Position numbers and translations under genes: made by a program. Below, in pieces: positions 18,288 through 56,479 of a stretch of 64,000 nucleotides of DNA (position 1 is its first letter; each line of letters opens with the position of its first letter). The DNA comes from an uncultured Planctomycetaceae bacterium (GTDB lineage: Bacteria > Planctomycetota > Planctomycetia > Pirellulales > Thermoguttaceae). A model generated the notes under the pieces. That model ran no database searches, was not told where the DNA came from, and was given only the letters and a program-made list of their open reading frames with translations. Location: positions 2,579,548 through 2,643,547 of the forward strand of contig CAWDLR010000003.1 in assembly GCA_963803125.1 (NCBI GenBank). The letters are read 5' to 3'.

Positions 18288-20665
18288 TGTGGCCGCTTGA
18301 CGTGCTTCACGATCCGGGCTGGCAACCGCTGACCTGCACGCTGCTGCACTTTCTCTGGCAAGGAATGGTCGTTGCGGCGGCGTGGACAGTGTTGTTCCGG
18401 CTGCCGCGGGCGCAGTCGATGCAGTTCCGCTACGCGCTCGGCCTTGCCGGCATGTTCGTGATGGCCGCCTGCCCGGTGGCGACGTTTGCGCTGCTTCAAT
18501 CACGAGCCGGCGCGGGCGAGGCCAAGGCATTGTTTGGAAAGCCCTCGCCGACGGGAAAAGCCCCCCGATTGCAATCGGGGGGCGTTGGAGAGCGGAAAGG
18601 AACTCTCGGAGACCGAAACGGGTCGAGCATCGCGCCCCGTGTTGCCCGCGAATTACATGACACGCCAGGGGCTGTTCCCTGCGATCCGTTCTGCTGGATC
18701 GACAAAGCGCAACCGTACTTGCTTGGCGGCTGGATGCTCGGGCTGGTAGTCCTTAGCGGCCGGCTGATGTTTGGGGTCGTCGCCGAGCGCCGCCTGGGGC
18801 GAGGCCGGGTGGCAATCGCGGGCGAAATCAGCGAGCGGGTGAAGGTACTGGCAGTCCGCCTGGGGCTTCGGAGGGTTCCGCGGGTTTTCAGCACGAAGGC
18901 CGCCCGCGAGGCGGTCGTTACCGGCCTGTTGCGGCCGATGGTATTGCTGCCGGCCGCCTGGTTGGCGGGGATGCCGCCCGAGGTGCTGGAGGCGGTAATC
19001 GCCCATGAGTTGGCGCACATCCGCCGCTACGACGTTTGGTTCAATCTGTTTCAGCGTTTTGTCGAGACGTTGTTGTTCTATCATCCCGGCGTTTGGTGGC
19101 TCTCGCGCCGCGTGCGGCTGGCCCGCGAAATGTGCTGCGACGAGATGGCGGCCCGGGCGACGGGCGAGCGCGTGGTGTATGCAACCGCATTGGAGCTGGC
19201 GGCTCGAAAGCGACTAGAGCCGGCCGGAAGATCGCTCCTGGAAGTCGCATTGGGAATCACTCGCATGACTCTGTTGGATCGCGTTCGCAACGTATTGGGA
19301 TTGGCCGCCCGGCACGAGCAAGGGCGTTGGTGGCCGGCGGCGGTGATGGTGCTGTTGGTGCTTCCGGCCGTTTGGTTTGCGTCGCTGGCAGTCACTGCGG
19401 CCGATGAGAAGCCGATCGCCGTTCAGCCGGCGAAGAACGAAAGTCGGCCGCAGCAGTTGGTGTTGAACGTGGACGCCAAGGGGAAAGTGAGCGCGGCAAA
19501 GCCAATTCGCGACATCGACGAATTTCTCTCGGCCAAAGCCCGCGAAATCCTGGCGGCCAATCACATAACGGGGGCCGATCTGGAGGCGGGAAAAGACTTG
19601 CCGGCGACCATGGTGCTTCGCGTCGCCCGCGACGTGCCGCTTGCAAAACTCGAAGTCGTGATCAGGGCTTGCCAAGAACACGGCTTCCACAAATTGTCAT
19701 TCGCGCTGGACAAGGAAGCGGCATCACCTGCCGTTGCGCCGCTGGCCGCCGAAGAGACGGGGCCAAGGCACTCGGCGACCGCGACCTTCCGCATCGCAAT
19801 GGAAGAAAAACCCGTGCTCGGCGCGAGTAATGCGCCAACGAGCCGCGAGGCATTCGAAATCTACAAGAATACCCAGGCGGAACTGCTGAAGAGCAGGTTG
19901 GTGTCGATGGCGGCCCTACGCAATCCGAAGATCGCCGGACTTCAGTGGCTCGAACGTCACGAGGCGCCGGGCGATTCCGTTAAATGGCTTGCCGACCACT
20001 TGCAAGTCAGTTTTCCCGCCAATTCGGAATTGATGAAGGTCAGCCTTCGCACCAGCGGTCCGGTGGATGCGGTGGCGTTATTGACCGCCGTCACCAACGC
20101 CTACATGAGGGAAGTAGTGTCTGCCGAAAACGATCGGAGGGCGCGGCGTTTTGACCAGCTTGACAGGATCTGTTCTGAGGAACAGCAAGAGCTGCGCAGT
20201 AAGCGGGAGGAACTTAGGAGCCTGGCGGCATTGACGGGAGGGGCCGACCCGGCCATACGCGCCGCGCGAGCCAAGGCCGTCTTCGAAGAACTGGCCCTTT
20301 ATCGGAACCGATTGGCGACGGCGGGCTTCGAGATTTCGCACTACAGGGTGGATCTGGCAGTGCAGAAGGCCTACCTCGAAGACGCCAAGGGGGACGCCCG
20401 CGCTCCGATCCTCAAAGAGATCAAACGGCTTGAAGTCTCCATCCGCGTGACGACCGAGCAACTGGCGGAGTTGCAGAAGACGATCAAGGAGTTGGAAGAG
20501 ACTACCAGATCTCTGAGCAATCCTGAATCGGTTGACATAGAGATGGTCCGAACCGCGATCGCGAACGTCGAAGCCTCGCTGTCGAAATGTGTCGCGGAAA
20601 GGGAGCGATTGGGAATCGAGCTTCGTACTCCCCCGCGGATCACGTTGATAGAGCCCCCGCAATAG
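18287..20665 (+). CDS. BlaR1-like M56 metallopeptidase sensor with ExbD-like and Wzz/GumC-like C-terminal extension
   Basis: TM segments plus HELAHIRRYD (HEXXH). Later TM (WWPAAVMVLLVLPAVWFASLAV). ExbD/TolR-like block (MVLRVARDVPLAKLEVVIRACQEHGFHKLSFAL). Then a chain-length-determinant-like region and a long coiled coil. Confidence 0.75.
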   Translation: MWPLDVLHDPGWQPLTCTLLHFLWQGMVVAAAWTVLFRLPRAQSMQFRYALGLAGMFVMAACPVATFALLQSRAGAGEAKALFGKPSPTGKAPRLQSGGVGERKGTLGDRNGSSIAPRVARELHDTPGAVPCDPFCWIDKAQPYLLGGWMLGLVVLSGRLMFGVVAERRLGRGRVAIAGEISERVKVLAVRLGLRRVPRVFSTKAAREAVVTGLLRPMVLLPAAWLAGMPPEVLEAVIAHELAHIRRYDVWFNLFQRFVETLLFYHPGVWWLSRRVRLAREMCCDEMAARATGERVVYATALELAARKRLEPAGRSLLEVALGITRMTLLDRVRNVLGLAARHEQGRWWPAAVMVLLVLPAVWFASLAVTAADEKPIAVQPAKNESRPQQLVLNVDAKGKVSAAKPIRDIDEFLSAKAREILAANHITGADLEAGKDLPATMVLRVARDVPLAKLEVVIRACQEHGFHKLSFALDKEAASPAVAPLAAEETGPRHSATATFRIAMEEKPVLGASNAPTSREAFEIYKNTQAELLKSRLVSMAALRNPKIAGLQWLERHEAPGDSVKWLADHLQVSFPANSELMKVSLRTSGPVDAVALLTAVTNAYMREVVSAENDRRARRFDQLDRICSEEQQELRSKREELRSLAALTGGADPAIRAARAKAVFEELALYRNRLATAGFEISHYRVDLAVQKAYLEDAKGDARAPILKEIKRLEVSIRVTTEQLAELQKTIKELEETTRSLSNPESVDIEMVRTAIANVEASLSKCVAERERLGIELRTPPRITLIEPPQ

Positions 20666-21326: not shown

Positions 21327-21421
21327 TGGTCAGGCCCGGAGGATCCAGCACGCCCCCACAATTGACTGATGCCGGAGCGCCGGCGGACGTAGTAATCCTG
21401 TGCGGTCAACATGGGGAACCT

Positions 21422-21492
21422 GTTTAGCCGCCGCGTTTACGCGGCGGAGAATCGCTGACAACTGCATCGCCGCGCGGACGCGGCGGCTAAAC
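21422..21492. repeat. REP family I pair (GTTTAGCCGCCGCG...CGCGGCGGCTAAAC)
   Basis: Arms at 21422-21447 and 21470-21492. A second copy lies at 52604-52692. Confidence 0.8.
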
Positions 21493-21710
21493 GGTTCGGA
21501 GACAACCACCATAATCCGTTACTGCACCGGGACCGGCCTATTCATTCCGGTGACAATTCTGTATTCTGTAGGGCGACAACAGCGACACCTGGGGGTTTGG
21601 GCCGGCTGGCCAAGAGTGGTTGACATTGTCGGGCGGCCGGGGGTATCGTTTTCTGTTTCTTGCGGTAGGCGGGACGGGGTCGTGGTGTTTCGAGGCGGAG
21701 GCTGCCAGTA

Positions 21711-22853: not shown

Positions 22854-22898
22854 CCCGCATTTCTCACCACGCGGGGAATACGCTCAATACAATTATTC

Positions 22899-22968
22899 GG
22901 TGGGGCAGACATTCCTGTCTGCCCCGTAGAATGCGGCAAATAGGGCAGACAGGAATGTCTGCCCCACC
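22899..22968. repeat. REP family B pair (GGTGGGGCAGACATTCCTGTCTGCCC)
   Basis: Arms at 22899-22925 and 22943-22968. The same family occurs at 28325-28392, 37301-37325, 39814-39891 and 43885-43954. Confidence 0.85.
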
Positions 22969-23016
22969 GTGGCGAGAAATGCGGGCTAGAAGTTTTCGAT
23001 CGGCCGACAACGCCTA

Positions 23017-24118: not shown

Positions 24119-24162
24119 GGGACTGTCCCGATTTTCGCGTCAACGAAAATGGGACTGTCCCC
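24119..24162. repeat. REP family G (GGGACTGTCCC-ATTTTCG...CGAAAAT-GGGACTGTCCCC)
   Basis: Palindrome at 24119-24162. Copies lie at 40447-40490 and 52894-52938. Confidence 0.8.
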
Positions 24163-27137: not shown

Positions 27138-28265
27138 TCATTTCGGCTTCGCCAAGCACTCCAGCGGGATCAGCTTGCGGACCGGGGCCACCAGCGTCCT
27201 GATTTGGGCCGCGACTTGGCGATACGCCTGGCGGCTTGCGCCGCTGTCGCCCGGGGATTGTTTTAGGGCTTCCCCCAAGAGATTCTGTTCGGCGTTGCTG
27301 TAATCCAGAACAGTGAGGGCGAGCAGGATTTGGTCGGTTGACTGGGCGGCCTCCTCGGCCCAGGCGATGCCTTTCGGCGGCGGAGGGATCGCACTGCGAC
27401 GCGACTTGATCACTTCGCTCTGCTTGGAATACTGCTCCGTCTTGGCCCCTTTCTCCAGCAGCCCGACCAGTTCATCGCAGCCATCGAGGAATGCCGACAA
27501 CTTTCCAGCAAACGCGATCTCCTCGGGCGACGGCTTGTAAGCCTGCGGCTTCGGCGCGGGCGGCGGCACGAGAGCGACCGGCGGCGAGGCGGCAACGGGT
27601 TGCGCGACGGGCGTGGGGGGCGGCGCGGAAGTGTTCCGCCCAATCATCCAAATCGCCACGGCCACGATCGGAACGATGACGACAATGGCCGCGGCGCCGG
27701 CAATGATCGGCCAGAGTCGCGTGGACGAGCCCGGCGAGGGAACGTCGTCATCGTCGCGTACCTGCCTCGCCGGGGGCTTCGCGACTTTCGCGCCGACGTA
27801 CGAGCCGCAATGTTTGCACTTGACCGCCACCGCGAGAATCTGCTCGCCGCAGTAGGGGCAGGCCTTGGTCGTCGGCGACGTGGCGGTGGCCTCGTCGGCG
27901 TCGTCGCCCAAGTCGAGATCGTCCAGGCCGCGAGGCAGATCCTCATCGTCGGCGCTGAGAATGTCCTCGATGCGGGCGTCGAGATTTTTTCCAACGGCCT
28001 TCGTCTCCGTACTCTGCTTCGCCGGGGCTTTCTCTGCCGAGACTCGTTTCTCCGCAGCGGGCGGCGGGGCAGATCTCTGTGGAGCGGCAGCCGCTTTGGG
28101 TGGAAGCGGGGCGGGTTCGGCCATCGGAATGATGCTCTCGACGGTCACTCCGTGCTTGTCGGCGATTTGCAGGGCCGCTTCGCGGCTGTCGGCGGAGATT
28201 ACGACCGACGCCCGTTGGCCTGTTGCCCGCACAACCCCCTTGCACGAGAATTTCTGCTTGGCCAT
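27138..28265 (-). CDS. Zinc-ribbon membrane protein
   Basis: ATG 28265. CPYCGEQILAVAVKCKHCGSY zinc ribbon, then TM (LWPIIAGAAAIVVIVPIVAVAIWMI), then a helical C-domain. Confidence 0.6.
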   Translation of the reverse strand: MAKQKFSCKGVVRATGQRASVVISADSREAALQIADKHGVTVESIIPMAEPAPLPPKAAAAPQRSAPPPAAEKRVSAEKAPAKQSTETKAVGKNLDARIEDILSADDEDLPRGLDDLDLGDDADEATATSPTTKACPYCGEQILAVAVKCKHCGSYVGAKVAKPPARQVRDDDDVPSPGSSTRLWPIIAGAAAIVVIVPIVAVAIWMIGRNTSAPPPTPVAQPVAASPPVALVPPPAPKPQAYKPSPEEIAFAGKLSAFLDGCDELVGLLEKGAKTEQYSKQSEVIKSRRSAIPPPPKGIAWAEEAAQSTDQILLALTVLDYSNAEQNLLGEALKQSPGDSGASRQAYRQVAAQIRTLVAPVRKLIPLECLAKPK

Positions 28266-28324
28266 GACGTTCCCCAACGCTTGAAAAGACAAGGCAGTTC
28301 GGGAAAAAGTACCCATTTCCGCGA

Positions 28325-28392
28325 GGTGGGGCAGACATTCCTGTCTGCCCAGGCGCCGCACAGGCGGGGCAGACAGGAATGTCTGCCCCACC
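28325..28392. repeat. REP family B pair
   Basis: Arms at 28325-28350 and 28366-28392. Confidence 0.85.
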
Positions 28393-28546
28393 AATCACTC
28401 GGTTGCCCCCTTTTCCACTATCGGAAGACTGCGGGACCGGTGCTCCCCCCTCCCCAGTCGATTCTACCACGCCGCCCCCTGCCGCGAAAAGCACAGGTTT
28501 GCTAAAATAGCCGTTATTGCAGCGGGCAATTCTTCGACAGAGGCGT

Positions 28547-28618
28547 TGTAGGAGGCGGCTCCTGTCGCCGATTCGGCGGCGTTGGCGACCCGGTCGGCGA
28601 CGGGAGTCGCCTCCCACA
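28547..28618. repeat. REP family D pair
   Basis: Arms at 28547-28572 and 28594-28618, immediately upstream of folD. Confidence 0.8.
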
Positions 28619-28636
28619 GTAATAGGAACAACATCA

Positions 28637-29504
28637 ATGACGGCTGCGATACTCAATGGGAAGGCGCTTTCCGAGCAAATTCGGGCGGAAATCGCGGGGG
28701 AAGTCGCCCTGTTCGTGGCGAAAACCGGCGTGATGCCCTGCCTGGCGGCCGTGCTGGTGGGCGAAGACCCCGGCAGCCAGGTCTACGTCCGCAACAAGCA
28801 GAAGGCGTGCGAAAAGGCGGGCATCGCCAGCCAATTGCATCGCCCGCCCGCGGAAACGACCACCGAGGAGCTGCTGGCCCTGATCGACCGGCTGAACCGC
28901 GACCCGGCGGTCCACGGCATTTTGGTGCAGTCGCCCCCGCCGAAACAAATCGACGAGCGGCGAGTCCTCTCAGCCATCAACCCGCTGAAGGACGTTCGAC
29001 GCCTTCCATCCCGAGAACGTCGGCCTGATCGTTCAGGGCCAGCCGCGGTTTCTTCCCTGCACGCCCCACGGAGTTCAACAACTGCTGTTGCGCAACGGCA
29101 TCCCGATCGCCGGCGCCAACGTGGTGGTGGTGGGCCGTAGCGACATCGTGGGCAAGCCGATGGCGATCCTGCTGATGCAGAAGGGTCCCGGCGGCGACGC
29201 CACGGTGACGGTTTGCCACAGCCGCACCCGCGATCTCCCCGCCGTCACCCGGCGGGCCGACATTCTGATTGTGGCGATCGGCCGCCCGCGTTTTGTCACC
29301 GCCGACATGGTCAAGCCCGGCGCGGTAGTGATCGACGTGGGGATGAATCGTTTGGCCAGCGGCCTGGCGGGGGACGTCGATTTCGAGGCGGTCAAGGAGG
29401 TGGCCGGGCAGATCACGCCCGTCCCCGGCGGCGTCGGCCTGCTAACGGTGACGATGCTGCTGCACAACACGCTCGTGGCGGCACGCTTGCAGCAAGAGGC
29501 CTAG
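28637..29504 (+). pseudogene. folD: folD (methylenetetrahydrofolate dehydrogenase/cyclohydrolase) interrupted by an apparent 1-nt insertion near 28997
   Basis: Frame A 28637-28996 reads MTAAILNGKAL..VGEDPGSQVYVRNKQKACEKAGI..HGILVQSPPP..NPLKDV. Frame B from 28998 reads [84 protein letters not shown]. Frame B is closed by TGA at 28986-28988, so the shift lies within 28989-28997. Confidence 0.85.
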
Positions 29505-29533
29505 AACCTGTCTGACAACCGGCGAACTCGTAG

Positions 29534-29667
29534 GTTATGCTTCAGCATAACACCCCTTTTTCGTTATGCTTCAGCATAACACCCGCTTCTTGTTATGTTT
29601 CAGCATAACACCCGCTTCTTGTTATGTTTCAGCATAACACCCGCTTCTTGTTATGCTGAAGCATAAC
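29534..29667. repeat. Tandem array of 5 family E palindromes with 29-bp period
   Basis: GTTATGCTTCAGCATAAC starts at 29534, 29563, 29592, 29621 and 29650. The 11-nt linkers are near-identical (ACCCGCTTCTT). Lies between convergent folD and DUF1080. Confidence 0.85.
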
Positions 29668-29689
29668 CTACTGATTGTGAAGCGGCTTC

Positions 29690-34037: not shown

Positions 34038-34354
34038 CCTTCATCCCTCATCCTTCCACCTCGGATTTTACCACCACAGAGGGAGAAAGTTTAGACGCCG
34101 CCCGGGTCCGAGTCAGCGATTTCATTTCGGAAAACTCGTCTTGAAGAGGTCCGCGGGGGACCGCCTCGTTGATCGGATGTGGAAAACTCCCGAAACCGCT
34201 GGAAAACAGGACTCTTGCTGAATTTGCCAGCCAACCCTGTTTTAAGGCCCGCCAGAGGGGAACCCTGCGCAAGTTCTCTGGTAGCAGCGTCTTAAGACAA
34301 CTTGTCGGGCCACGGTTGACCTCGATGAGGAAATCATTAGACTTGGACGTTCTC

Positions 34355-39813: not shown

Positions 39814-39891
39814 GGTGGGGCAGACATTCCTGTCTGCCCTAGATGTTCCCACTTGCCTGGTTCCTGGGCAGACAGGAATGTCTGCCCCACC
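39814..39891. repeat. REP family B pair
   Basis: Arms at 39814-39839 and 39866-39891. Confidence 0.85.
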
Positions 39892-40025
39892 TGTCGCCAT
39901 TTTATAAGTTAACCCAATTACGAGACACTACACTAGTCTACCGTAGCGCTCATAATACCCCTTCTGTTGCGGGGACACAAGCAGCACGGGCCACCGACGT
40001 GGAAGACTGCCACGCGACGGCAGCA

Positions 40026-45040: not shown

Positions 45041-46434
45041 ATGGACGACTTGCCAACGGCGGCGGTGTGTGAGCCGAGTCAATCGGCAGAAGTTGAACGG
45101 GTAATTGCACTTGTGATGAAGGCCATTGAAGGCGACGTGCGCAGGATCGCCGAAGCGATGGTCCTCAAGCGCGACGACCAGTTGTTGGGGCCAGGCGAGT
45201 TTGATCTTCGCAATAAGGTGCTGGGGATGGCTCGTCACATGCTTGAGGCAACGGTCAACGACCGTAAAAAAGGGGGTATCAAGGTTCCAGCACGATCTGT
45301 CCGCAGTGCGGCGAAAACGCCCGCTTCGTCGAGTGGCGGAACAAGACGTTCGTGAGTTTGTTTGGCGAAGTCACCATCCGGTTCGCCTACTATCACTGCA
45401 AGCATTGCGGAAAGGGATGGCGGCCGTGGTGCGACAAGTTGCGGTTGAGTAACGGGGCGTTGACGCCAGCCGCCGACGAAATCGCGGCGCTGGCTGGCGT
45501 GTTGGGCAGCTTCGCCGACGGCGCCGAACGAGTGTTGTGGAAGATGGCCGGTTTGCAAATGAGCGAATCGACGGTGGAGCGCACCACCGAGGCGGCAGGC
45601 GAGCGCGTTCGCCAACAACTTCGCGGGGGACAATCACTTGGTCTAACGCGCGACTGGCAGTGGCAGCGCGACGCCCGCGGACAACGTTGCGCCTACGTCA
45701 GTCTCGACGCCACGGGCGTGCGTCAACAAGATTCCGGCGGTCACCACGCAGAGGGCCGGATGGCTTACGTAGGTATGGTCTACAATCCACAAAGCGAACA
45801 CGATTCCAAGCGGCCGCCGCCGCGCCAAGTACGCTATTTATCAGGCTTTTTCGAGCTTGACGACCTCGGACGGCAACTTCATCGCGAGGCGTTGGAGGTC
45901 GGCTGGGCCAACGCCGATCAACACATCGCGCTCAGCGACGGAGGATCGGGCTTGGAGCCGTTTTTCAAGCGGTTCTTTCCCAAGGCCGTTTGCATTCTCG
46001 ACTTCTTTCATGCCAAGGAATATCTCGTGGAATTGAGCCAGGCGCTGTATGGCGAAGACGAGTCGGGGCGACAAGCATGGCTCGACGATATGTGCCATCG
46101 TTTGAAACACGAAGGCGGTCCGACGGTGCGACGATGTTTGCAGGAATTGGACCTTGGCGCAGCCTCGACGGCGCTTCGGGAAGAGCATCGCCAAGTGGTG
46201 CAATACTATCGCAATCACGAGCACCGCATGGACTACCCGACCTACGTCCGCAACGGTTGGCAGATTGGTTCGGGCCCGGTGGAGTCGGCCTGCAAGACGG
46301 TCGTGGGCAACCGGCTGAAGGGTGGTGGAATGCGTTGGAGTGAGGATGGAGCGGACGCCGTTTGTCACCTCCGCGCCCTCTACCTCAGCGAGTCCGTCTG
46401 TTGGGAATCCTTCTGGAATCCTCCCCCCAACTGA
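45041..46434 (+). CDS. ISKra4-family-like DDE transposase in two frames (45041-45271 and 45268-46434) joined at an A6G5 run
   Basis: orfA is MDDLPTAAV...EATVNDRKK. The -1 frame continues RGYQGSSTICPQCGENARFVEWRNKTFVSLFGEVTIRFAYYHCKHCGKGW...VSLDATGV...ALSDGGSGLE..ILDFFHAKEYL. The zinc-ribbon motif is split from its N-terminal domain only by the frame change. Confidence 0.75.
45266..45276 (+). promoter_or_regulatory. Candidate -1 frameshift / transcriptional slippage site (AAAAAAGGGGG)
   Basis: The 0-frame reads CGT AAA AAA GGG GGT. The -1 frame is closed by TAA at 45265-45267 and open from 45268. The A6 run sits exactly at the junction of the two transposase frames. Confidence 0.5.
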
Positions 46435-46487
46435 CGCCACCCACAAACTTGACGCTCACACCAGCGCCGGTCAGTTTTCCAATCTAC

Positions 46488-48042
46488 GTGGCACGCAATG
46501 CCATTTCCAGTTTACTGTGTTATGCCGCTTGTAACTGTTGTTGAATCTTGACTTTCTGTTCTTCTGTCAGCCGCAGCAAGACCGGCGGGTGTGGCGCCGT
46601 GTGAGCTTTGCGACGCGGCCATTCCCGCTTCTGTTTCGGGCTGGTACGCACACGCCGTTCGCGTTGCGCTCGGGCAATCCTTTCACGAAATGGCTTGGAT
46701 TCCCTACGGCCTAACATGTCACGACGCACCTCCAGCAACACCCCCCGTGGGCTGCACATTATCGGGAGGCTGTCTTTCGGCGGTGCCGGCATCGCCAACG
46801 CGCCTTGACAAAGCAATAACTGCGTTGCGATCATCGAAGCCTCTGCCTCGCGATGCACTAGCCGTAGCGTCCGACTCATCAACGCCACTTTCTTCAAGGT
46901 TCGCTTGTAGGTTCTGAAAAATCCCTCGTTTTCCCACCTCCAACGATAACAAGTTCCCGCCATCTCCAAGGATAGCTGCTTCGCATCTTCCACGTTCGTA
47001 AACAGCCAGACGTCCACCTTATGACGGCAACTGTGAATCCGCAGCAATCGGCCGCGAATCGGCGGCTTGCCGTCCTCCTGCTGGCTCTTCGGCCAATAAT
47101 AGACAATCCCTTCGCGGAACTCCTCCAACAGTTCCTGGGTTTCGCTGTAAAAGGTGGCCTTGGAGGACATGCGGATGAGAAAGGACACGTTCGCCAAGAT
47201 CATGGTCGCGGCCACGTTGTAGCCCACATATCCCGCGTCGGCCACCACCAACGCCGCCGCTGGCAGCCAACGCAGCATGTACATGAGGTGACTTCGTTCG
47301 CTGGCTTTGCCCCCCTTCCCCAATCGCCAGCAAAAGGGAATGCCCAAGGTAAGATGCACGATCGAGGTGTTCCAGATCGTCGGTGACGAATCCTCTTTGC
47401 CGCCGCTTCCCAAGCGTTGCTCCAGTTCCTCGGTGCGGGGACACGTCTGCCGCGTGCCATCACAGCCAAAGGGGATGAAGTTTCCCACTTTCCACTGATT
47501 GCCGAAAATGACTTCCATCCGTGCGCGCAGGGCCGCCGCCAACGCCCGCAGGATGGGCATGGGAAGTTTGGCGATGGCCTTTTCAAAGCCGGAAAAGTGC
47601 TGGCCCGGCCGTTTTCGTTTTGGACAACTGGCGACATAGAACATTCTGGCGGCTTCAAACTTTTCCGGGAGGCTGTCGCCACAGCAATAGGTCGTCAGGA
47701 TGATGATGTAAAGCAAAGGATGCAAGTCCCAACGCGGGCATTTCCTGCGTTTTGGAGCATTTCGGACTTGCTTGAAAACTTCCGGCGTGAGAAACTCTCG
47801 CATCGAGCCGATCAACGATTTCGCCCGCCGTCGTTGGCGGGCCCGCTTCCTTGCGTTGGCCATTTGCCGTTCCTTCCATGATGGGGTTTGGTGTTGTGAC
47901 CCCCTATCATTGCTGGAACGGCTTTTTCATGCGCGGTCAATTCACCGCCATTTTCCCAAAGCACATTTTCAACGCAACCCTCGACCTCGCAAAAGATTAC
48001 ATCAAAACCGCTTCCAATCAAGCCTTGGCATTGCGTGGCACG
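46488..48042 (-). mobile_element. Candidate extent of the IS4-like element (boundaries uncertain)
   Basis: CGTGGCACGCAATGCCA at 46488-46504 and TGGCATTGCGTGGCACG at 48026-48042 form a 16/17 inverted repeat bracketing the transposase. No clear TSD. The right arm overlaps a REP-like palindrome. Confidence 0.35.
46520..47863 (-). CDS. IS4-superfamily DDE transposase
   Basis: VVADAGYVGY (D). C-terminal Y-2-R-3-E-6-K signature in YRWRWENEGFFRTYK. Basic N-terminus. Confidence 0.8.
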   Translation of the reverse strand: MANARKRARQRRRAKSLIGSMREFLTPEVFKQVRNAPKRRKCPRWDLHPLLYIIILTTYCCGDSLPEKFEAARMFYVASCPKRKRPGQHFSGFEKAIAKLPMPILRALAAALRARMEVIFGNQWKVGNFIPFGCDGTRQTCPRTEELEQRLGSGGKEDSSPTIWNTSIVHLTLGIPFCWRLGKGGKASERSHLMYMLRWLPAAALVVADAGYVGYNVAATMILANVSFLIRMSSKATFYSETQELLEEFREGIVYYWPKSQQEDGKPPIRGRLLRIHSCRHKVDVWLFTNVEDAKQLSLEMAGTCYRWRWENEGFFRTYKRTLKKVALMSRTLRLVHREAEASMIATQLLLCQGALAMPAPPKDSLPIMCSPRGVLLEVRRDMLGRRESKPFRERIARAQRERRVRTSPKQKREWPRRKAHTAPHPPVLLRLTEEQKVKIQQQLQAA

Positions 48043-48175
48043 GGCATCCTGCCCGTGGCCGCAAGACACGGGCAAGATGCCCGTGCCACTTCAAACATCG
48101 TTACCCAACTTGAATAACCGATTGGCCCTTACCGCGACGGCCTTCGGCTTGCCGGCGCTGGGATTTCGCGACAGA

Positions 48176-50689
48176 ATGACGTCCATGCCGATTTCCAACA
48201 GACCCGTCGATTCGCGGCCCCGTAGGCCGCGCTATCAGCCGCTGGTGAACGTCCTGTTAGCCGTTGCGGCCGGCATCCTGGTTGACCGCTTCTGGCCGCT
48301 GCCGTTTCCGGCATGGGGGACGTTGGCTGTCGCCGGCTTGCTGCTCTGGGCCGTTGGTACGGCCTCGCGGCGCGTGCCGCTTCTCCTCGCCAGCGTGCTG
48401 CTCCTCTTGGCGGTGGCGGCGACGGCGGGGGCGTGGCGGCACTGCTGCTGGAACCTCTTCTCCGCCGACGACCTGGGCCGCTATGCCCGCCGCAACCCAC
48501 AGCCGATCGCCGTCAACGCCGTGGTGCTCGAATCGCCGCGGGCCCTCCCCCCACTGCCGTCCGATGCGTTGCGAGCAACGCCGGCACGCGAGGGAGCCCG
48601 GCTGACTGTCGACCTGCGCGGGTTGCGGAACGGCGCCGCCTGGCAGCCAGCCTCTGGTCGGGCGACGCTGTTCGTGGCGGGCGAGCCGCCGAGCGTCGAG
48701 CCGGGCGATTGCGTCCGTTGCTTCGTCCACCTCTCCGCCCCCGAGGGGCCGCAAAACCCCGGCGAAGCCGATCGTGCCGCCCGGCTCCGCGCCGATCGCA
48801 TCCTGAGCTGCCTTTCGGCCAAGACGGCCGATTGCGTTTCAGTCACAAAGACCGGATCCGAGTGCAATCTCTGGCGGCAACTCGGCCGCGTTCGCTCGTT
48901 CGGCAATCATACGCTAAAACGATACCTGGACCAGCAACGGGCCGAGTTGGCCGCCGCCGTGCTGCTCGGGCTGCGCGAGGAGCTCGACGCCGGGCGAAAC
49001 GAGGCCTTTCTCACCACCGGCGCCGTTCACGTCCTCTGCATCTCCGGCCTGCACGTCGGTATCTTGGCGGGTGCCCTGTTCTGGATCATGCAGCGAACGC
49101 GAATCCCCCGCGGCTGGGCGGTGGCTTCGGTCGCCGCCATCACGCTGCTCTACGCGATCATGGTTGACGTTAGCCCGTCCGTGGTCCGGGCGACGATTCT
49201 GGTGCTGATCGTCTGCATTGCCGCCTGGCTCGGCCGCCGCCCGCTGGGTTTCAGTTCGCTGGCCGCTGCGGCGCTGGTCGTATTGGCGGTCAATCCCGAA
49301 CACCTGTTCCACACCGGCGCCCAACTGTCCTTCCTCTGCGTCGCCGTGCTGATCTGGTTCGCCAACCGCCGGCCACATTGGGATGACGACGTGGCAGCAA
49401 CTAAGACAACGCTCGACCGCCTGGTTCAGCAGAATCTGAGCTGGCCCGCGCGGAACCGGGCGAAGCTCAAACGAAGCGTGGTCGGCATCGCCGAGGCCGG
49501 TCTGTTGCTTTGGGTGCTGGCGCTGCCGCTGGTCATGGCGCGGTTTCATATTCTCTCACTGGTGGCGCTGGTGCTGAATGTGTTGCTCTGGCCGCTGATA
49601 TCGATGTGCCTTTTGAGCGGATTTGCGGTATTGTTGTTCGGCCCGCTCTGTCCGCCGCTGGGATACCTCTGCGGCTCGATGTGCAACGGAGGCCTTTGGC
49701 TGCTGGAAGGGGGCGTAAAGCTGGGCGATCGCCTGCCGTACGGCCATTTCTGGCTGCCCGGGCCGGCCGATTGGTGGCTGTGGGGATTTTACGGCGCCGT
49801 GGGTTTGGCCGTCGCGTTTCCGCGGCTTCGCCCCCGGTGGCGTTGGTGCGTCGCGTTATTGGCCGCGTGGATCGCCCTCGGCTTTGCGGCCTCCGCGTGG
49901 CGGCACGATCGCAGCCGGCTCGATTGCACCTTTCTCAGCGTCGGCCACGGCTGCGCGGTCTTCATCGAGTTTCCCTCCGGCAAAACCATGCTCTACGACG
50001 CCGGGCGGATGGGCGAGCCCGCCCTGGGCGCCCGCACCATCGCCGGTTTCCTCTGGGATCGCGGCCTGTCGCATCTCGACGCCGTGGTCCTCTCCCATTC
50101 CGATATCGACCACTACAACGCCCTGCCGGAGTTGCTCGGCAAGTTCTCGGTCGGAGCGGTCTACGTTTCGCCGGTGATGTTCGAGAAGCACAACCGCATG
50201 ATCGCGGCCTTGCACGACGCGATCGAGCAGAATCGAGTCCCATTGCAGGAAGTGAGCGCGGGCAAGCGTCTCCCGGCGGGCGGCGATTGCCTGGTCGAGG
50301 TGCTGCACCCGCCACCCAGCGGCATCCCCGGCTCGGACAACGCCAACAGCGTGGTGCTGGCGGTCGAGTATCGCCGCCGGCGGATCGTCTTGCCCGGCGA
50401 CTTGGAATCGCCGGGGCTCGACGAGATGCTGGCGCAGCAGCCGCGGCAGTGCGAGGTGCTGATGGCCCCGCATCACGGCAGCCGCAAGAGCAATTCGCCC
50501 GCCCTGGCCGCCTGGTGCAGACCGCGCTGGGTCGTCTTCAGCGGCGATGGCCGCTGGAACCTGCCGGCGATCAACCAGACCTATCAAGCCGTCGGCAGCC
50601 AGACGCTGCACACGCACGCCTGCGGCGCGATCCGCGTGCAAATCGGCGACGGCGGAGTTGAGGTATCGCAATTTGTCAAACCGTTGTAA
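48176..50689 (+). CDS. comEC: DNA internalization competence protein ComEC/Rec2 (DUF4131, competence and metallo-beta-lactamase domains)
   Basis: ATG 48176. TM-rich competence core (TGAVHVLCISGLHVGILAG ... LSFLCV). C-terminal MBL domain (FLSVGHGCAVFIEF..GKTMLYDAG ... LSHSDIDHYNAL ... LMAPHHGS). Confidence 0.85.
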   Translation: MTSMPISNRPVDSRPRRPRYQPLVNVLLAVAAGILVDRFWPLPFPAWGTLAVAGLLLWAVGTASRRVPLLLASVLLLLAVAATAGAWRHCCWNLFSADDLGRYARRNPQPIAVNAVVLESPRALPPLPSDALRATPAREGARLTVDLRGLRNGAAWQPASGRATLFVAGEPPSVEPGDCVRCFVHLSAPEGPQNPGEADRAARLRADRILSCLSAKTADCVSVTKTGSECNLWRQLGRVRSFGNHTLKRYLDQQRAELAAAVLLGLREELDAGRNEAFLTTGAVHVLCISGLHVGILAGALFWIMQRTRIPRGWAVASVAAITLLYAIMVDVSPSVVRATILVLIVCIAAWLGRRPLGFSSLAAAALVVLAVNPEHLFHTGAQLSFLCVAVLIWFANRRPHWDDDVAATKTTLDRLVQQNLSWPARNRAKLKRSVVGIAEAGLLLWVLALPLVMARFHILSLVALVLNVLLWPLISMCLLSGFAVLLFGPLCPPLGYLCGSMCNGGLWLLEGGVKLGDRLPYGHFWLPGPADWWLWGFYGAVGLAVAFPRLRPRWRWCVALLAAWIALGFAASAWRHDRSRLDCTFLSVGHGCAVFIEFPSGKTMLYDAGRMGEPALGARTIAGFLWDRGLSHLDAVVLSHSDIDHYNALPELLGKFSVGAVYVSPVMFEKHNRMIAALHDAIEQNRVPLQEVSAGKRLPAGGDCLVEVLHPPPSGIPGSDNANSVVLAVEYRRRRIVLPGDLESPGLDEMLAQQPRQCEVLMAPHHGSRKSNSPALAAWCRPRWVVFSGDGRWNLPAINQTYQAVGSQTLHTHACGAIRVQIGDGGVEVSQFVKPL

Positions 50690-50890: not shown

Positions 50891-51547
50891 ATGCAGCTAA
50901 TCTTGCGAACACTGATCATTTTGCAGACGATTGCCGTCGAGTTGGCGGCATTGGCTGCGATGGACGACGTCGAGACGGCCCCAATCTCGGGGCCGATGCT
51001 CGCCGCCTCGGGCCTGATCGTCGCTTACCTCTCGTTTCGCCGCAACCGGCCCTGTGGGCTCTGCTTCGGGTCGATCGCGCCGACCGCTTATGTGCTATCC
51101 TTCTCGCTTATCAGCGGATTGGGCTGGAGCAAATACGACGCGTGGACGCCGATGTTCGTCATCGTCGCCGTGGTTGCCGCGTTTCATGTGGTGGCGGCGT
51201 TTCTTGCGATCGGCGAAATCGCCGCAACGCTGGAGGATAATCGCCCGAAGCTCCCCTTTCAGTTCAGCATCTTCTCCATGCTGGTGCTGATGCTGCTGGT
51301 TTCGATCTTTTTCGGATCGTACCAAACCTTCGGTCCGGCTGGGGCGGGAATCGGGGCGCTGTTTGCCTATGCGGTCATCCTCACCTATTTGCTGCGGCAG
51401 TTTCACCTCATGCGCGTGCGGCAAAAAGAAGAGCTTCGCGAGAAAAGTTGGCCCTCCGCTTCGCGCGACACGGCAATCCGGAAAAACGAGGGAGCGTCCC
51501 GAGAACAGCCGGCACCTCACCCAGTTCGCAACCTGAGACAACTGTGA
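50891..51547 (+). CDS. Hypothetical polytopic membrane protein
   Basis: ATG 50891 lies just after a REP cluster. About 6 hydrophobic segments. Its stop overlaps the next gene's GTG (GTGA, 51544-51547). Confidence 0.5.
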   Translation: MQLILRTLIILQTIAVELAALAAMDDVETAPISGPMLAASGLIVAYLSFRRNRPCGLCFGSIAPTAYVLSFSLISGLGWSKYDAWTPMFVIVAVVAAFHVVAAFLAIGEIAATLEDNRPKLPFQFSIFSMLVLMLLVSIFFGSYQTFGPAGAGIGALFAYAVILTYLLRQFHLMRVRQKEELREKSWPSASRDTAIRKNEGASREQPAPHPVRNLRQL

Positions 51548-52091
51548 CCGTGACCATTGACAACAACGGCGCAGCGACGTTGACCAATAATCAGGGCACA
51601 TCCTGCCGTCCGCTGGTGCTGCTGGCGATCGCGATTGCGGCGGTGATTTTTATCTTCCCGCTCTTGCTGCGATTCCCGCTGTTGGATCCCGACGAGGGCC
51701 TGCACGCCTCGATCGCCCAGGAGATGGTGGAACGCGGCGACTGGATCGTGCCCCGCTTTCTCGGTCAGCCCTTCTTCGACAAGCCGATCCTCTATTTCTG
51801 GATTCAGGCGGCGTCGCTGCGGCTGTTCGGCTGGAACGAGACGGCCGTGCGGTTGCCGGGGCTGATGTTCGGCCTGCTCGGCGCGGTGACGACGGGGTTG
51901 CTGGCCTGGCGGATGTTCGGCCGCAAGACCGGCTGGATCGCCGGCATCTTCTACGCCACGACCATCCTGCCCACCGCATTGGCCCAGGCGGCCTCGCACG
52001 ACGTCGCCCTGGTCCCCTGGGTCAATCTGGCAATGCTGCTGCTCTGGGATGCGGAATGTAGGAGGCGTCTGCGGGCACCGATCCCAGAACT

Positions 52092-52131
52092 CCCCTCGCC
52101 CGCTCACGGGAGAGGGGCAGGGGGTGAGGGC
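52092..52131. repeat. REP family F unit (CCCCTCGCCCGCTCACGGGAGAGGGGCAGGGGGTGAGGGC) inside ArnT-like gene 1
   Basis: Translated as PSPAHGRGAGGEG. The family also occurs at 56505-56655 and 58762-58856. Confidence 0.8.
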
Positions 52132-52603
52132 GTCGCACAGAACCCTCGGACGCCATTCTCGCGCGCGATCCTCGCCTGTTGGCCCAACGGCGCCGGAAGG
52201 CGCCTCCTGCAACCCTTCTGCGAGACCGTCGGCGCCGGGCTGTTTCTCGGGCTGTCGATTCTGACGAAGGGCCTCCTGGGCGTGGCCGTCGTGGGGCTGG
52301 CTTTCGGCGGCTATCTGCTGATTGCCCGGCGAGTGACGATCGCGGCGTTGCTGCAAGCCACGGCCGTGCTGTTGATCGCTGTCGCCGTGGCCGCACCGTG
52401 GTATCTTGCCGTCGAGGCGCGACAGGCCGGTTTTCTCCACTACTACTTCTTCGAACGCCACGTCCTCGGCTTCGCCACCGGCAAGCAACCGCACAGCGAT
52501 CAGCCCTGGTGGTATTATCTGCCGATCCTGCTCGGCGGCGGACTGCCGTGGATCGCCTATCTGCGCTGGGCGGCAGGCGGGGGCCGAGATTTCGCAGATG
52601 ACC

Positions 52604-52692
52604 GTTTAGCCGTCGCGTCCACGCGACGTGGAATTACCGGCGCATTTCGATCTTATCTTCACTTCATCGCCGCGTGGACGCGGCGGCTAAAC
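52604..52692. repeat. REP family I pair inside ArnT-like gene 1
   Basis: Arms at 52604-52628 and 52670-52692. The ORF stays open through it. Confidence 0.8.
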
Positions 52693-52893
52693 GCTGGTTC
52701 TCAATCCTCGACCGCCGATTCTCCGCCCTCCGCTCTCCCTTTCCTCTGGTTCTGGCTGATCGGCTGGGTCGTTTTCTTGACCGTGGCGCGGTCGAAACTG
52801 GCGACGTACCTTTGGCCGGCGTTTCCGCCGCTGGCGATCTTGGCGGCGGTGGCCTGGACGCGGGCGATCGCCGGTTCGCTCGGCGCCATCGAG

Positions 52894-52938
52894 GGGGACC
52901 GTCCCATTTTCGTTGACACGAAAATTGGGACAGTCCCC
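52894..52938. repeat. REP family G unit inside ArnT-like gene 1
   Basis: Translated as GDRPIFVDTKIGTVPG. Confidence 0.8.
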
Positions 52939-53625
52939 GGCGAGGCGGCCAGGCGATCGTTCGCCCGCTCGTTCGTCAGCTCTTGTTGGGGCGGACCGAT
53001 CGTGTTGCCGGCAGCCGTGGCGGTGCTGCAATCGGCGCTGGCGTTCCGCTTCGCTTGGCCGGTCTGGCTGGCGGTGATCGCGGTGGCCGCGGTGTCGCCG
53101 TTGCCGCTGGTTCCCTGGCGCGGGCCGGCGGCAGGCGGCCATGGCGGCGGCGGCGCTCTCGCTGGCCGCGCAGTTCGTCGTGGTGATGACGTTGATTCTG
53201 CCGCCGCTTGCGGAAATGTACTCCGCCCGCGATTTGGCCGAGCATTTTAATCGCACCGGCGAGTTTCCGCCGCGGCTGTTTGTGGCGGAAGAGCGCGCCG
53301 GCTCGCTGGTGTTTTATCTCAACGCCGCGCTCTGCGCCGAACTTACCGAGGGCCGGCTTCAGTTTCTTCCCACCGATCCGCCGACGCCGCTACGGCCCGG
53401 CGACGTGGTGGCCGTCAAAGATCGGAATCTATCGAAGGCCGAGCAGTGGCTCGACCTCGACGACAGCCCCTACCAGCGCGTCGGGCAATATCGCTTGTAC
53501 CGTCTGGCGAAACCGCAAGCGGGAAATTGAGATCGAGCGTCTATCTAAGTGCGAGCGAATAGAACTTGTGCTCACAGTAGCCCGCACACGCCGTGTGCGC
53601 GGCGGCGGCACACGGCGTGTGCCGC

Positions 53626-54448: not shown

Positions 54449-56479
54449 ATGTCTCGAATGATGCGCTATCAACTCTGGATTGCCGCCGTCGCCGCGGCGA
54501 TCTTCTTCACCAACCTCGGCGCCGCGGCCCTCTTCGACATGGACGAGGCCCTCTACAGTTCCTGTGCCCGCGAAATGCTCCATCGCGGCAACCTGGTCGT
54601 GCCCTGGTTCAACGGGGCAATGTTCCCCGAAAAGCCGCCGCTGATGTTCTGGACGATGATCGGGGGATACAAGTTGTTTGGCGTCGACGAACTGGGCGCC
54701 CGCTTCTTCTCGGCCCTATTCGGCGTGGGCACGGCCCTGGTGGCGTTTCATCTCGGCCGGATTTTTTTCAATCCTCGCGTGGGCCTCTGGGCCGGCCTGA
54801 TCACCGCCTCGACGATCGTGTTCACCATTTCGGCCCGCGCCGCCACGGTCGATTCGGCCCTGACGTTCTTCACAGCTTTGGCGTTCTTGATGTTCGTGAT
54901 GGGATGGAGGAGGTCGGCAGTGGGCAGTGAGCGGTGGGCAGTGGGTGGCGCTGAAATTGGGGAAGGCGCTGCCTCTAATCCCCAATCCCCAATCCCTAAT
55001 CCCTCCCTTTCACAATTTCCCTTGCCCTACGCCATCGCGACCTACGCCTCGATCGGCGTGGCCGTCTTGGGCAAAGGGCCGGTGGGAATGCTGCTGCCGC
55101 TGGCGGCGATGGGTCTGTTCCTGCTGGTCACGGCGGAGAAAAAGGGGACAGGTACAATTTGTGCGCAGCACCCTTCGGGCCGTTCCGGCAAATTGTACCT
55201 GTCCCCTTTTTCTCCGGACTGCTGGCGCAGCCTGTTTCGCTCGGCCTGGTGGATGCGGCCGTTCACGATGATCGTGGTCATCGCCGCGGTCGCCGCGCCG
55301 TGGTACTTGGCGGTCGGCGTCGAGACGAACGGGGAATGGCCGAAGCAGTTCATCCGCGACTTCTGTCTGCGTCCATTTAAGCAGCCGATCCAAGGCCACG
55401 GTGACGCCACCGCCGTGATCGTCTCGATCCTCTACTATTTCTATCAGGTTCCTGCGGTGCTGGTCGGCTTCTTCCCCTGGTCGGTGTTCTTGGCGCCGAC
55501 GCTGATCGATGCGTGGCGACGGCTGCGCCGCCCCTTGCCCAACCAGCCGCTTGCGGTTTCGCAAGCGTCCCAGACGAGTGCAAACCTCCCAGAGGATCCG
55601 CCAGCACAGCCACCGACACTGGAACGGGCGGGAATCGTGCTCGCGCTCTGCTGGTTCGGCACTTGGTTCCTCTTCTGGTCGATCTGCAAGACGAAACTGC
55701 TGCACTACTTGTTGCCGGCCTATCCGGCATTGGCCCTGCTGACCGCATGTTTCATCGATCGCTGGCTGGCGTCGGAAAAGGGGTCAGAACTGTTTTGCGC
55801 CGGCCGGCCCGCCTCGCAGCCTCCATCGTCCGAAAAAACAGTTCTGACCCCTTTTTCCCCGTGGGTGTTGCGAAACGCCTGGATTTCGCTGATTCTCGTC
55901 GGCGTCGGCATCGCGATCGCTGTTCCCTTCATTGCCGCGAAGTTCCTGCCCGGCGAAGGTTCGTTGGGACTGTTGGGACTTCTCCTTGTCTTCGGCGGCG
56001 GGTGGTGCTGGTGGAAGACCTCGCGCGGACTGCACTACGACGCCGCCATCACCATCGTCATCACCGCCGCGGCGTTCTTGATCGGCGTATTCGGCCTCGC
56101 TGTTCTGCGGGTCGATCGCTTCCAGAATGCGAAATCAATGATAGCGGCGATCCGTGCCGACGAAGAAAAGGGGTCGGGTGTCATTTCCGCGCCTCCGCGG
56201 TCGCCCATCGCCACCTATCGCTTCTTCCGCGAGAGCACGGTTTTCTACGCCGGCAAGCCGGTGCGAAGATGCGACGACGATCCGGCCGCCCACCAAACCG
56301 CCCCGCAGGCCCTGGCCCAATTCCTCGCCACCCCAGGCCGCTCGTACGTGATTACCACCGACGAGTACGCGGCGGAACTGAAACAGAAGAAGGAGTTCTC
56401 CGGCCGCCTCAAAGAGATTCATCGCGAGCCGCGTTTTCTCGCGGACGGCGAGATGGTCATCTTCCGCCACGGCAATTGA
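54449..56479 (+). CDS. ArnT/PMT_2-like GT39 glycosyltransferase (paralog of 51544-53530)
   Basis: ATG 54449. LFDMDEALYSSCAREMLHRGNLVVPWFNGAMFPEKPPLMFWTMIGGYKLFG. Many TM segments. Several in-frame REP inserts. Confidence 0.8.
   Translation: MSRMMRYQLWIAAVAAAIFFTNLGAAALFDMDEALYSSCAREMLHRGNLVVPWFNGAMFPEKPPLMFWTMIGGYKLFGVDELGARFFSALFGVGTALVAFHLGRIFFNPRVGLWAGLITASTIVFTISARAATVDSALTFFTALAFLMFVMGWRRSAVGSERWAVGGAEIGEGAASNPQSPIPNPSLSQFPLPYAIATYASIGVAVLGKGPVGMLLPLAAMGLFLLVTAEKKGTGTICAQHPSGRSGKLYLSPFSPDCWRSLFRSAWWMRPFTMIVVIAAVAAPWYLAVGVETNGEWPKQFIRDFCLRPFKQPIQGHGDATAVIVSILYYFYQVPAVLVGFFPWSVFLAPTLIDAWRRLRRPLPNQPLAVSQASQTSANLPEDPPAQPPTLERAGIVLALCWFGTWFLFWSICKTKLLHYLLPAYPALALLTACFIDRWLASEKGSELFCAGRPASQPPSSEKTVLTPFSPWVLRNAWISLILVGVGIAIAVPFIAAKFLPGEGSLGLLGLLLVFGGGWCWWKTSRGLHYDAAITIVITAAAFLIGVFGLAVLRVDRFQNAKSMIAAIRADEEKGSGVISAPPRSPIATYRFFRESTVFYAGKPVRRCDDDPAAHQTAPQALAQFLATPGRSYVITTDEYAAELKQKKEFSGRLKEIHREPRFLADGEMVIFRHGN
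55136..55214. repeat. REP family H pair inside ArnT-like gene 2
   Basis: GAGAAAAAGGGGACAGGTACAATTTG ... CAAATTGTACCTGTCCCCTTTTTCTC. Translated as EKKGTGTICAQHPSGRSGKLYLSPFS. Confidence 0.85.
55774..55858. repeat. REP family H pair inside ArnT-like gene 2
   Basis: GGAAAAGGGGTCAGAACTGTTTT ... AAAACAGTTCTGACCCCTTTTTCC. Translated as EKGSELFCAGRP...EKTVLTPFS. Confidence 0.85.

Follow-up and report, generated by a model that had tools for sequence, protein, structure and literature searches.

The 64,000-nucleotide stretch analysed here (the window), from an uncultured Planctomycetaceae bacterium, carries short repeats, most of them palindromic, inside the genes of well-known proteins. Its G+C content varies from 57 to 66% along its length, and the closest homologues of all the genes examined belong to metagenome-assembled Thermoguttaceae and Pirellulales genomes (Planctomycetota). 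The original prediction held that units of repetitive extragenic palindromic (REP) families have been inserted in frame into a series of coding sequences. All 13 elements that it named were found in place, within long open reading frames (ORFs) that stay open throughout, and Pfam matches bore out the host identities (cytochrome c assembly, nrdJ, dehydrogenase, GT87, two GT39/PMT-like proteins and M56). The comparisons described below support its reading of these elements, other than the palindrome of the BlaR1-like gene, as in-frame insertions.

Short palindromic repeats are dense in the window, where no fewer than 60 families of direct repeats and 48 inverted pairs were counted. Copies of the elements at non-orthologous sites were sought in 148 related loci (1.9 Mb). 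The family B core occurs as nine units in the window, against 0.01 expected from shuffles, and the family G core occurs three times, against 0.02 expected; four units of family I, six of F and three of M complete the count across the 64 kb, and further copies lie at non-orthologous positions in the related loci, where elements H, H2, M, G and I were all found. Within the window, near-identical intergenic copies exist for families B, G, I and F, together with a K-like tract (37557-37576). The reference copies are three intergenic family B doublets with 100% complementary arms (22898-22969, 28325-28392 and 39808-39897), a family G copy (24144-24161) that lies upstream of where the next gene probably starts, a family I inverted doublet (21418-21496) and a tandem array of three 55-nucleotide (nt) family F units (56503-56667), with reverse copies at 58775-58858. 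The claim that the intragenic units are identical to intergenic ones thus holds almost to the letter for B, F, G and I, but not for family J, which occurred at the orthologous ccsBA site and nowhere else in the window or the related loci, nor for the palindrome of the BlaR1-like gene described below.

The units of families B, G, I, J and M fold back into hairpins 20-30 nt long. Inverted doublets, the pairing typical of REPINs (REP doublets forming hairpins), were observed for B (at 22898, 28325, 39808 and 43885), I (at 21418 and 52601) and J (31378-31441). Folded as RNA, the elements form very stable hairpins, whose energies range from -22 to -59 kcal/mol and whose lowest z-score is -9.8; no element matched an Rfam family. 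The GTAG tag was found in two intergenic families only, TGTAGGAGGCGACTCC... and GGTAGGTTATGC... (12094-12176, 4005-4066 and relatives of each); it is missing from the intragenic families B (GGTGGGGCAGAC), G, H, I (GTTTAGCCG) and J.

The clearest insertions are those for which a relative preserves the empty site. The gene nrdJ (34446-37517, + strand; Pfam Ribonuc_red_lgC, Ribonuc_red_2_N and TSCPD) encodes a class II ribonucleotide reductase. We retrieved 80 orthologous loci and aligned the insert region of the window with that of 42 orthologues. An in-frame insert of 45 nt (37306-37350, + strand) begins with a family B unit (REP core 37304-37327) and encodes GQTFVSAAPVAQPSL, 15 residues within the low-complexity linker that precedes the C-terminal Cys cluster. 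It was found in the window and in L003 alone (91% identical protein, 42 nt long there), and was missing from the 41 other orthologues. All of these, the 88% identical L004 protein among them, are exactly without GQTFVSAAPVAQPSL, and at the DNA level the insertion point lies directly after ...GACCGGGTGG. The insert has decayed to 83% identity, compared with 90.5% for its flanks.

The same linker holds a second hairpin, GGCCCGCCGCCACGATGGCCGGCGGGCC (28 nt, 37139-37166), about 140 nt upstream of the family B insert and encoding RPAATMAGGP. This hairpin is kept at the equivalent place in 71 of the 80 Thermoguttaceae and Pirellulales nrdJ loci (L003-L082), while the surrounding linker is hypervariable. 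The window was aligned with 70 of the 71 matching loci, L015, the most divergent match, being excluded; in these 71 sequences, 95% of cells paired, against 20-50% in slid registers. Both-sided changes were observed in four pairs; in four loci, for instance, a C-G pair has become U-A, which replaces Pro by Leu and Gly by Glu. The G-U wobbles fit the sense strand only. The hairpin has no dispersed copies elsewhere and no Rfam match. This pattern of paired substitution suggests an mRNA structure under selection.

A D-2-hydroxyacid dehydrogenase is encoded at 40026-41033 (- strand, true start Met at 41033; Pfam 2-Hacid_dh and 2-Hacid_dh_C). Its in-frame insert of 48 nt (40449-40496, - strand) is a single family G hairpin (40447-40490), the core of which is identical to the intergenic copy at 24144-24161, and it encodes ITGDCSSFRASENGTV, residues 180-195. 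Exactly these 48 nt are missing from the syntenic L146 orthologue, and the closest solved structure, PDB 5tx7 (E = 1e-102), is 13 residues shorter at this site. The alignment places the insert a few residues past the conserved Asp that ends beta-B of the NAD-binding Rossmann fold; we took this assignment from the GxGxxG...D pattern in the 5tx7 alignment and from established knowledge of the family. A look-up of the exact dehydrogenase sequence found no record of it. A scan with the GH10-like neighbour (41931-43403) returned 61 metagenome loci, in none of which the dehydrogenase or the GT87 gene was adjacent, and synteny around these two genes is confined to the closest relatives.

Two ArnT/PMT-like membrane glycosyltransferases are encoded on the + strand, GT39-1 (51448-53530; Pfam PMT_2 and PMT) and GT39-2 (54449-56479, true start at about 54449; Pfam PMT and PMT_2). 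In GT39-1, a 57-nt insert (52881-52937, + strand) consists of a single family G hairpin (52895-52936) and encodes AIEGDRPIFVDTKIGTVPG. It is present in the window and in L002, with 93% identity between the two copies and 81% in the flanks, and is exactly missing from L001. Within the same one to three codons, L144 and L145 hold a different palindromic family, of 57 and 63 nt, respectively.

For GT39-2, 120 orthologues were retrieved and 29 proteins aligned. The H1 element, a family H doublet with perfect 28-nt arms (55134-55216, + strand), encodes AEKKGTGTICAQHPSGRSGKLYLSPFSP, residues 229-256, and is present in four of the 29 proteins and missing from 25. At the DNA level its length is 84 nt in the window, the L001 and L144 copies run to 78 and 105 nt, respectively, and the sites in L002 and L145 are exactly empty. 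The window and L001 copies, which form a hairpin of -59 kcal/mol in the window, are 96% identical, against 81% in the flanks. In L144 the insert has AACGG on either side, a possible 5-bp direct repeat that matches the empty site of L002, ...ACAAACGGCTGG; such a duplication is indistinct in the window and L001 copies of H1 and at the nrdJ, dehydrogenase and G sites.

The above alignments resolve six independent insertions at the DNA level, of 45, 48, 57 and 84 nt in the window and of 57 and 63 nt for the other family in L144 and L145, and the length of each is divisible by 3; the later length variants of 42, 78 and 105 nt are likewise multiples of 3. Without a constraint on frame, six multiples of 3 would arise with a probability of (1/3)^6, or about 0.001. 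Past the inserts, the sequence is conserved in an unchanged frame, with many invariant residues. Presence or absence is exact among the related Thermoguttaceae and Pirellulales for these sites, and is supported at the protein level for the GT87 doublet, for H2, K and M of GT39-2 and for J and M of ccsBA; homologous residues occupying the insert sites across the order were not seen.

The multiple-of-3 rule also bears on whether the elements reach the protein. Long perfect hairpins could in principle be excised from the RNA or bypassed by the ribosome, in which case they would never appear in the product. Such removal would lift the constraint on length and on stop codons, yet the DNA-resolved inserts and their variants are all 3n and stop-free, and GTAG2 (GTTATGCTTCAGCATAAC), the sole family in which every one of the six frames contains stops, has no intragenic copy here. 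We regard removal before or during translation as barely conceivable.

The repeats are not specially stop-free. The idea that they might be was rejected: 66% of element frames are open, against 68% of random window segments of 50-90 nt.

Where a model was available, the inserts were found in loops. The GT87-family membrane glycosyltransferase (43532-44842, - strand; Pfam GT87) carries a REPIN-like family B inverted doublet (43885-43954, - strand) whose 25-nt arms are 92% complementary and which encodes ..SGGADILVCPSPGVARGRQECLPHP.., residues 297-320. In the AlphaFold model (predicted local distance difference test, pLDDT, 84; predicted template modelling score, pTM, 0.88), the insert forms a non-helical loop between helices 263-294 and 319-342. 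Out of 120 orthologues retrieved, we compared the loop in 34. The window shares the doublet with L001, L144 and a number of orthologues as distant as 57% identity; on protein-level evidence, 12 of the 34 have nothing in the loop, and others hold at least four other repeat-derived families at the same place. The identity of the doublet (80%) is close to that of its flanks (78.5%). Family B is read in different frames in its two hosts, as GQTFVSA in nrdJ and as GGADILVCP...GRQECLPHP in GT87, and this speaks against a conserved function of the peptide.

The AlphaFold model of GT39-2 (pLDDT 80.6, pTM 0.85) likewise has low-confidence, non-helical stretches at residues 162-186, 233-252, 366-377 and 445-464, which correspond to elements K, H1, M and H2. 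The two models therefore agree with a position in low-confidence loops between helices, as proposed for inserts that the fold tolerates. Element K (54975-55010, + strand) is an exception to the palindromic character that had been ascribed to all the inserts and that most of them have: it is a non-palindromic tract of the heptanucleotide AATCCCY, encoding SNPQSPIPNPS at residues 176-188. Its loop, the first large one, contains variant heptad tracts or nothing in the orthologues, and the heptads yield peptides with a seven-residue period (SNPQSPIPNP, QFAICNL, SSLILHP and EPRTLNP). Elsewhere in the window, heptanucleotide tracts (TCATCCY or AATCCCY, with a 14-nt period) were observed at 34027-34071, 37540-37580 and 58928-59014 in addition to 54975-55010, mostly between genes. 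The single family M unit of GT39-2, in reverse orientation (55545-55564, + strand), encodes QPLAVSQ, residues 366-372, in a hypervariable loop; P0001 and P0003 have a similar PLAASQ, and the remaining orthologues are different or empty at this site.

The H2 element (55774-55857, + strand) is a doublet of the H superfamily with perfect arms of 21-23 nt, encoding SEKGSELFCAGRPASQPPSSEKTVLTPFSP, residues 442-470. Closer orthologues have an occupied site, and at least 11 that are more distant have an empty one. Three orthologues, including L001 and L145, hold three different H subfamilies there, with many differences between arms and perfect pairing within each; replacement by another genomic copy is more parsimonious than divergence in situ. 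Members of the H superfamily are 69-105 nt long, with arms of 21-28 nt and a conserved central part in either orientation (...CAQHPSGRSGK... or ...CRNGPxGAxHK...), and by their architecture look closer to small miniature inverted-repeat transposable elements, or MITEs, than to classical REPs. Among orthologues, their three frames are used in about 30, 10 and 0-1 proteins, the very basic frame being the rare one; these counts, phylogenetically non-independent as they are, are consistent with peptide-level selection. In the two window copies and in others (among them L040:13755-13823, L129:5888-5956 and L147:9915-9983), the few bases immediately outside the conserved AAAGGGG...CCCCTTT core are inverted complements specific to the copy, such as CAACGA/TCGTTG, AGTGGGAA/TTCCCACT and GGAGAA/TTCTCC.

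Two further elements lie in GT39-1. A family F unit (52090-52144, + strand), embedded in a longer lineage-specific segment, encodes ..ELPSPAHGRGAGGEGVAQNP.. and differs from the tandem intergenic copies at 56503-56667 by one mismatch in 29 nt; L001 and L144 have another family at this site, and L145 is nearly empty. A family I inverted doublet with 28-nt arms (52601-52695, + strand) encodes ..RLAVASTRRG..FIAAWTRRLN.. and is also found in L001, at a site that varies in all relatives. Relatives also possess extra repeat-derived segments in loops that are empty in the window: the L145 GT39-1 protein (7133-9073) has 45 residues after ..GGYLL, and EKGSDPICAKHPQGRSGKWGLTPF-type inserts precede the C-terminal domain in GT39-2 orthologues (among P0008, P0009, P0011 and P0015). 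Since relatives carry their own inserts in such loops, the phenomenon is general in the clade.

The host originally called ccsA does contain the Cytochrom_C_asm domain, but it is in fact a ResB-CcsA fusion, ccsBA (30572-34037, - strand; Pfam Cytochrom_C_asm and ResB), acting in cytochrome c maturation. It is a single fused gene in L003 and L004. In the window it runs over two frames, with the N-terminal part at 33333-34037, owing to a 1-nt insertion relative to L003 near 33429-33446. Family J (31354-31441, - strand) is an inverted doublet with a third half-unit (arms 31354-31374, 31378-31401 and 31418-31441); it encodes ..EGWALQCPLNRGSMGTEVPIPHCSEVLIP.. in a loop before the CcsA core and forms a hairpin of -52 kcal/mol. 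It is present in L003, degenerate in L004 and missing from P0123 (63% identical), and in most of 150 representatives the alignments are interrupted from about residues 655-660 to about residue 700. Two direct 20-nt hairpin units of family M (33017-33036 and 33059-33078, - strand) encode KPLAVSH..EPLAVSH in the ResB-CcsA linker; L003, L004 and P0123 have one unit each, and P0124 has none.

GT39-1 is also interrupted. The GT39/PMT domains assigned to it are present, but comparison with the intact orthologue of L002 reveals a 2-nt deletion near 53113-53120 that shifts the frame, and the true C-terminus lies in ORF 53141-53530. The orthologue of L001 is broken over four frames, while those of L002, L144 and L145 are intact. 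Such lesions could mean that the hosts are pseudogenes or pairs of adjacent genes whose frames stay open by chance in a GC-rich genome, or that the inserts are assembly artefacts. About 68% of frames in 50-90-nt segments are indeed stop-free, and the M units of ccsBA sit exactly at the ResB/CcsA junction, where the modules are separate proteins in many relatives. On the other side, the frame past the inserts is conserved with many invariant residues; GT39-2, GT87, nrdJ and the dehydrogenase are intact and could be modelled or aligned from end to end; both indels lie away from the repeats; the intact L002, L144 and L145 orthologues of GT39-1 have repeats in the same loops; and the same inserts recur in independent short-read and long-read assemblies of different samples (L001, L002, L003 and L144). 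Because the related 'contig_N' assemblies are full of split genes, long-read consensus error is the likely cause of the two frameshifts. We consider an origin in pseudogenes or artefacts very unlikely, and for the four intact hosts it is largely refuted.

The BlaR1/M56-like membrane metalloprotease gene (18287-20665, + strand; Pfam Peptidase_M56 at residues 144-302) differs from the other hosts. The perfect 22-nt palindrome predicted in it is present (18561-18582), in the loop between transmembrane (TM) segments TM3 and TM4, with an RNA hairpin of -21.8 kcal/mol (z = -3.3), but its membership of a repeat family was not borne out: no further copy was found in the window or in the 148 related loci. 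Compared with a distant Corallococcus M56 protein (35% identity), residues 72-130 form a non-conserved loop of similar length in both, and the N-terminus had no match among PDB sequences.

The above findings raised the possibility that the inserts are kept because they do something, either as mRNA hairpins that pause ribosomes between TM segments or serve as signals for stability or for RNase III, or as cassettes that diversify the loops of envelope glycosyltransferases. The stability of the hairpins is extreme (-31 to -59 kcal/mol, z down to -9.8), H1 and the G insert of GT39-1 are more conserved than the flanking coding DNA, arms remain perfectly complementary in spite of subfamily differences between orthologues, different families recur in the same loops, and frame use in the H superfamily is skewed. 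The covarying hairpin of the nrdJ linker, found in 71 loci, also indicates that hairpins in coding regions can be selected in this lineage. Each insert is nevertheless dispensable in close relatives, the hosts are functionally unrelated, the family B frame differs between hosts, and the family B copies of nrdJ (83% versus 90.5%) and GT87 (80% versus 78.5%) decay at or above the rate of their flanks; moreover, high conservation can also be explained by recent insertion or by gene conversion from other genomic copies. Retention for function is thus, in our judgement, improbable as a general account.

We propose instead that the inserts are the survivors of mobile palindromic repeats, those that were free of stops, a multiple of 3 in length and located in permissive loops; the alignments, structure models and repeat comparisons, which record insertion, frame, loop position and a family tie to intergenic copies, make this very probable. 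According to this model, the elements would be non-autonomous mobile repeats of several families, both REP- or REPIN-like hairpins and MITE-like elements of about 45-105 nt. They would insert throughout the chromosome, and most insertions into coding sequences would be purged. Survival would require a length of 3n, no stop in the frame read and a permissive surface loop or linker, such as the loops between TM helices of the GT39 proteins, GT87 and ccsBA, the C-terminal linker of nrdJ or the dehydrogenase loop past beta-B. The inserts would then be translated through, adding lineage-specific segments of 15-30 residues that are probably disordered, and repeats already in place may draw in other copies or give way to them. 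Because permissive loops would be few, and because of such attraction or replacement, the same loops would come to hold different families in relatives. We infer from these data that an unseen transposase mobilises the elements in trans, that the inserts are translated and that they are nearly neutral; peptides predicted across the insert junctions include ..LLVTAEKKGTGTICAQHPSGR.. and ..DKLITGDCSSFR...

Several observations weigh against the survivor model. No Y1/RAYT (REP-associated tyrosine transposase) domain was matched among the 27 window ORFs scanned, although a single-copy RAYT gene could lie outside; mobility is argued only from dispersal and from presence or absence, because no transposase likely to move the elements was recognised in the window. 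Classical REPs have a GTAG or CGTC tag, which is missing from most of the intragenic families. That H1 (96% versus 81%) and the G insert of GT39-1 (93% versus 81%) are better conserved between species than their flanks is not what pure neutrality would lead one to expect, and the different families at identical codons in relatives may reflect more than a passive filter. Two hosts, ccsBA and GT39-1, are frameshifted in the window.

The recurrence of families in the same loops also led us to a more speculative idea, that a few permissive loops of envelope enzymes are re-targeted landing pads. Incoming palindromes would home to them, or replace the residents, through gene conversion or through insertion directed by hairpins or repeats, and some hairpins in coding regions may in addition be kept for a role in the mRNA, as the covarying nrdJ-linker hairpin suggests. 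We hold this to be unlikely. If it were true, the sequence of the loop would be exchanged like a cassette and the arms would remain perfectly paired, which would be more than passive survivorship.

The elements resemble several known systems. Intragenic GTAG/CGTC REPs, as monomers and inverted dimers in known proteins, were described in many phyla (Di Nocera, De Gregorio and Rocco 2013, BMC Genomics 14:522; PMC3733652); their coding capacity is about 7-30 residues, and a single gene sometimes has two or more of them. They were proposed to be a neutral decoration of loops and linkers, and are most numerous in Opitutus terrae (about 70 entries), which belongs to the same superphylum as the planctomycetes, PVC (Planctomycetes-Verrucomicrobia-Chlamydiae), and in Rickettsia conorii. 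Like these, the palindromic monomers and inverted dimers of the window lie wholly inside ORFs of known proteins; unlike them, most of the intragenic families have no GTAG/CGTC tag. The planctomycete entries of that survey are from R. baltica only and concern small hypothetical ORFs. Neither empty sites matched exactly among close relatives nor the occupation of one loop by different families came within its scope.

Rickettsia palindromic elements (RPEs), the precedent invoked by the original prediction, comprise several families inserted in frame, compatibly with the fold, in unrelated housekeeping genes (Ogata et al. 2000, via PMC10969869 and PMC3733652). The likeness holds for the in-frame, fold-compatible behaviour, but the intragenic REPs of Di Nocera et al. 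are closer, so that this kind of insertion was already known. RPEs measure roughly 100-150 bp, have an AT-rich composition and are confined to Rickettsia; the window elements are 45-105 nt, GC-rich and presumably unrelated in sequence. Size, composition and host lineage thus set them apart from RPE-1 to RPE-10, while their in-frame behaviour is RPE-like. In contrast to RPEs, several also occur between genes as classical short REP hairpins or doublets, and their host, a planctomycete, is free-living and has a large genome.

REPIN-RAYT systems consist of inverted REP doublets that form long hairpins in dispersed populations and were described as extragenic (Bertels and Rainey 2011, PMC3116915). 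The inverted-doublet architecture is found again in families B, I and J and in both of the GTAG-tagged families that lie between genes, but the inserts of the window are intragenic, no RAYT gene was seen in the window, and GTAG is confined to two intergenic families. Among bacterial MITEs, in-frame fusions are made by ERIC, Correia and cyanobacterial elements (review, 2024, PMC10969869). The H superfamily is MITE-like in its terminal inverted repeats of 21-28 nt, its conserved centre and its length of 69-105 nt, within the 50-500 bp range; it differs in that a possible target-site duplication is clear in one copy only, the elements are shorter than most MITEs, and no parent insertion sequence was identified. 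In the literature, we found no such inserts described for Thermoguttaceae, and for planctomycetes only the R. baltica REPs in small hypothetical ORFs. What is new is therefore the lineage and the occupation of the same loops by different repeat families in relatives; the behaviour itself is known. The nucleotide-exact empty sites, the mapping onto structures and the recurrent use of loops add to the earlier descriptions.

Other features of the window were recorded alongside. Intergenic tandem arrays of REP-like units were observed at 9926-10267 (114-nt period, three copies), at 11412-11531 (24-nt period, five copies) and, between genes, at 29527-29679, where the GTAG-tagged GTTATGCTTCAGCATAAC unit is repeated five times with a 29-nt period. 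The repeat doublets at 28325-28392 and 48035-48089 fall in the 5' extensions of ORFs 27138-28394 and 48035-50689; they are probably non-coding parts of 5' leaders, the likely starts being downstream (MAKQKF... and the comEC core, respectively). The gene folD is apparently split between ORFs 28517-29140 and 28989-29501, which overlap in different frames (about 28989-29140), the second holding the C-terminal domain only; here, too, a long-read consensus error is likely. The only insertion sequence of the window lies between GT87 and comEC (45352-47863), with a DDE_Tnp_1 transposase (46520-47863, - strand) and an unassigned 360-residue ORF (45352-46434); the syntenic relatives L001 and L144 are without it.

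These findings have consequences for the annotation of Thermoguttaceae proteins, in which gene callers and homology tools will meet lineage-specific segments of 15-30 residues, split domain matches and variation in length; these should be put down to repeats and not taken for errors or novel domains. Since they show where membrane glycosyltransferases, ccsBA, nrdJ and the dehydrogenase have permissive loops, the inserts could be used for tagging or engineering these proteins. Cases of presence or absence and of family replacement could serve to date the activity of the elements and to test targeted insertion. Finally, a behaviour described in Rickettsia and Opitutus is extended to free-living planctomycetes with large genomes.

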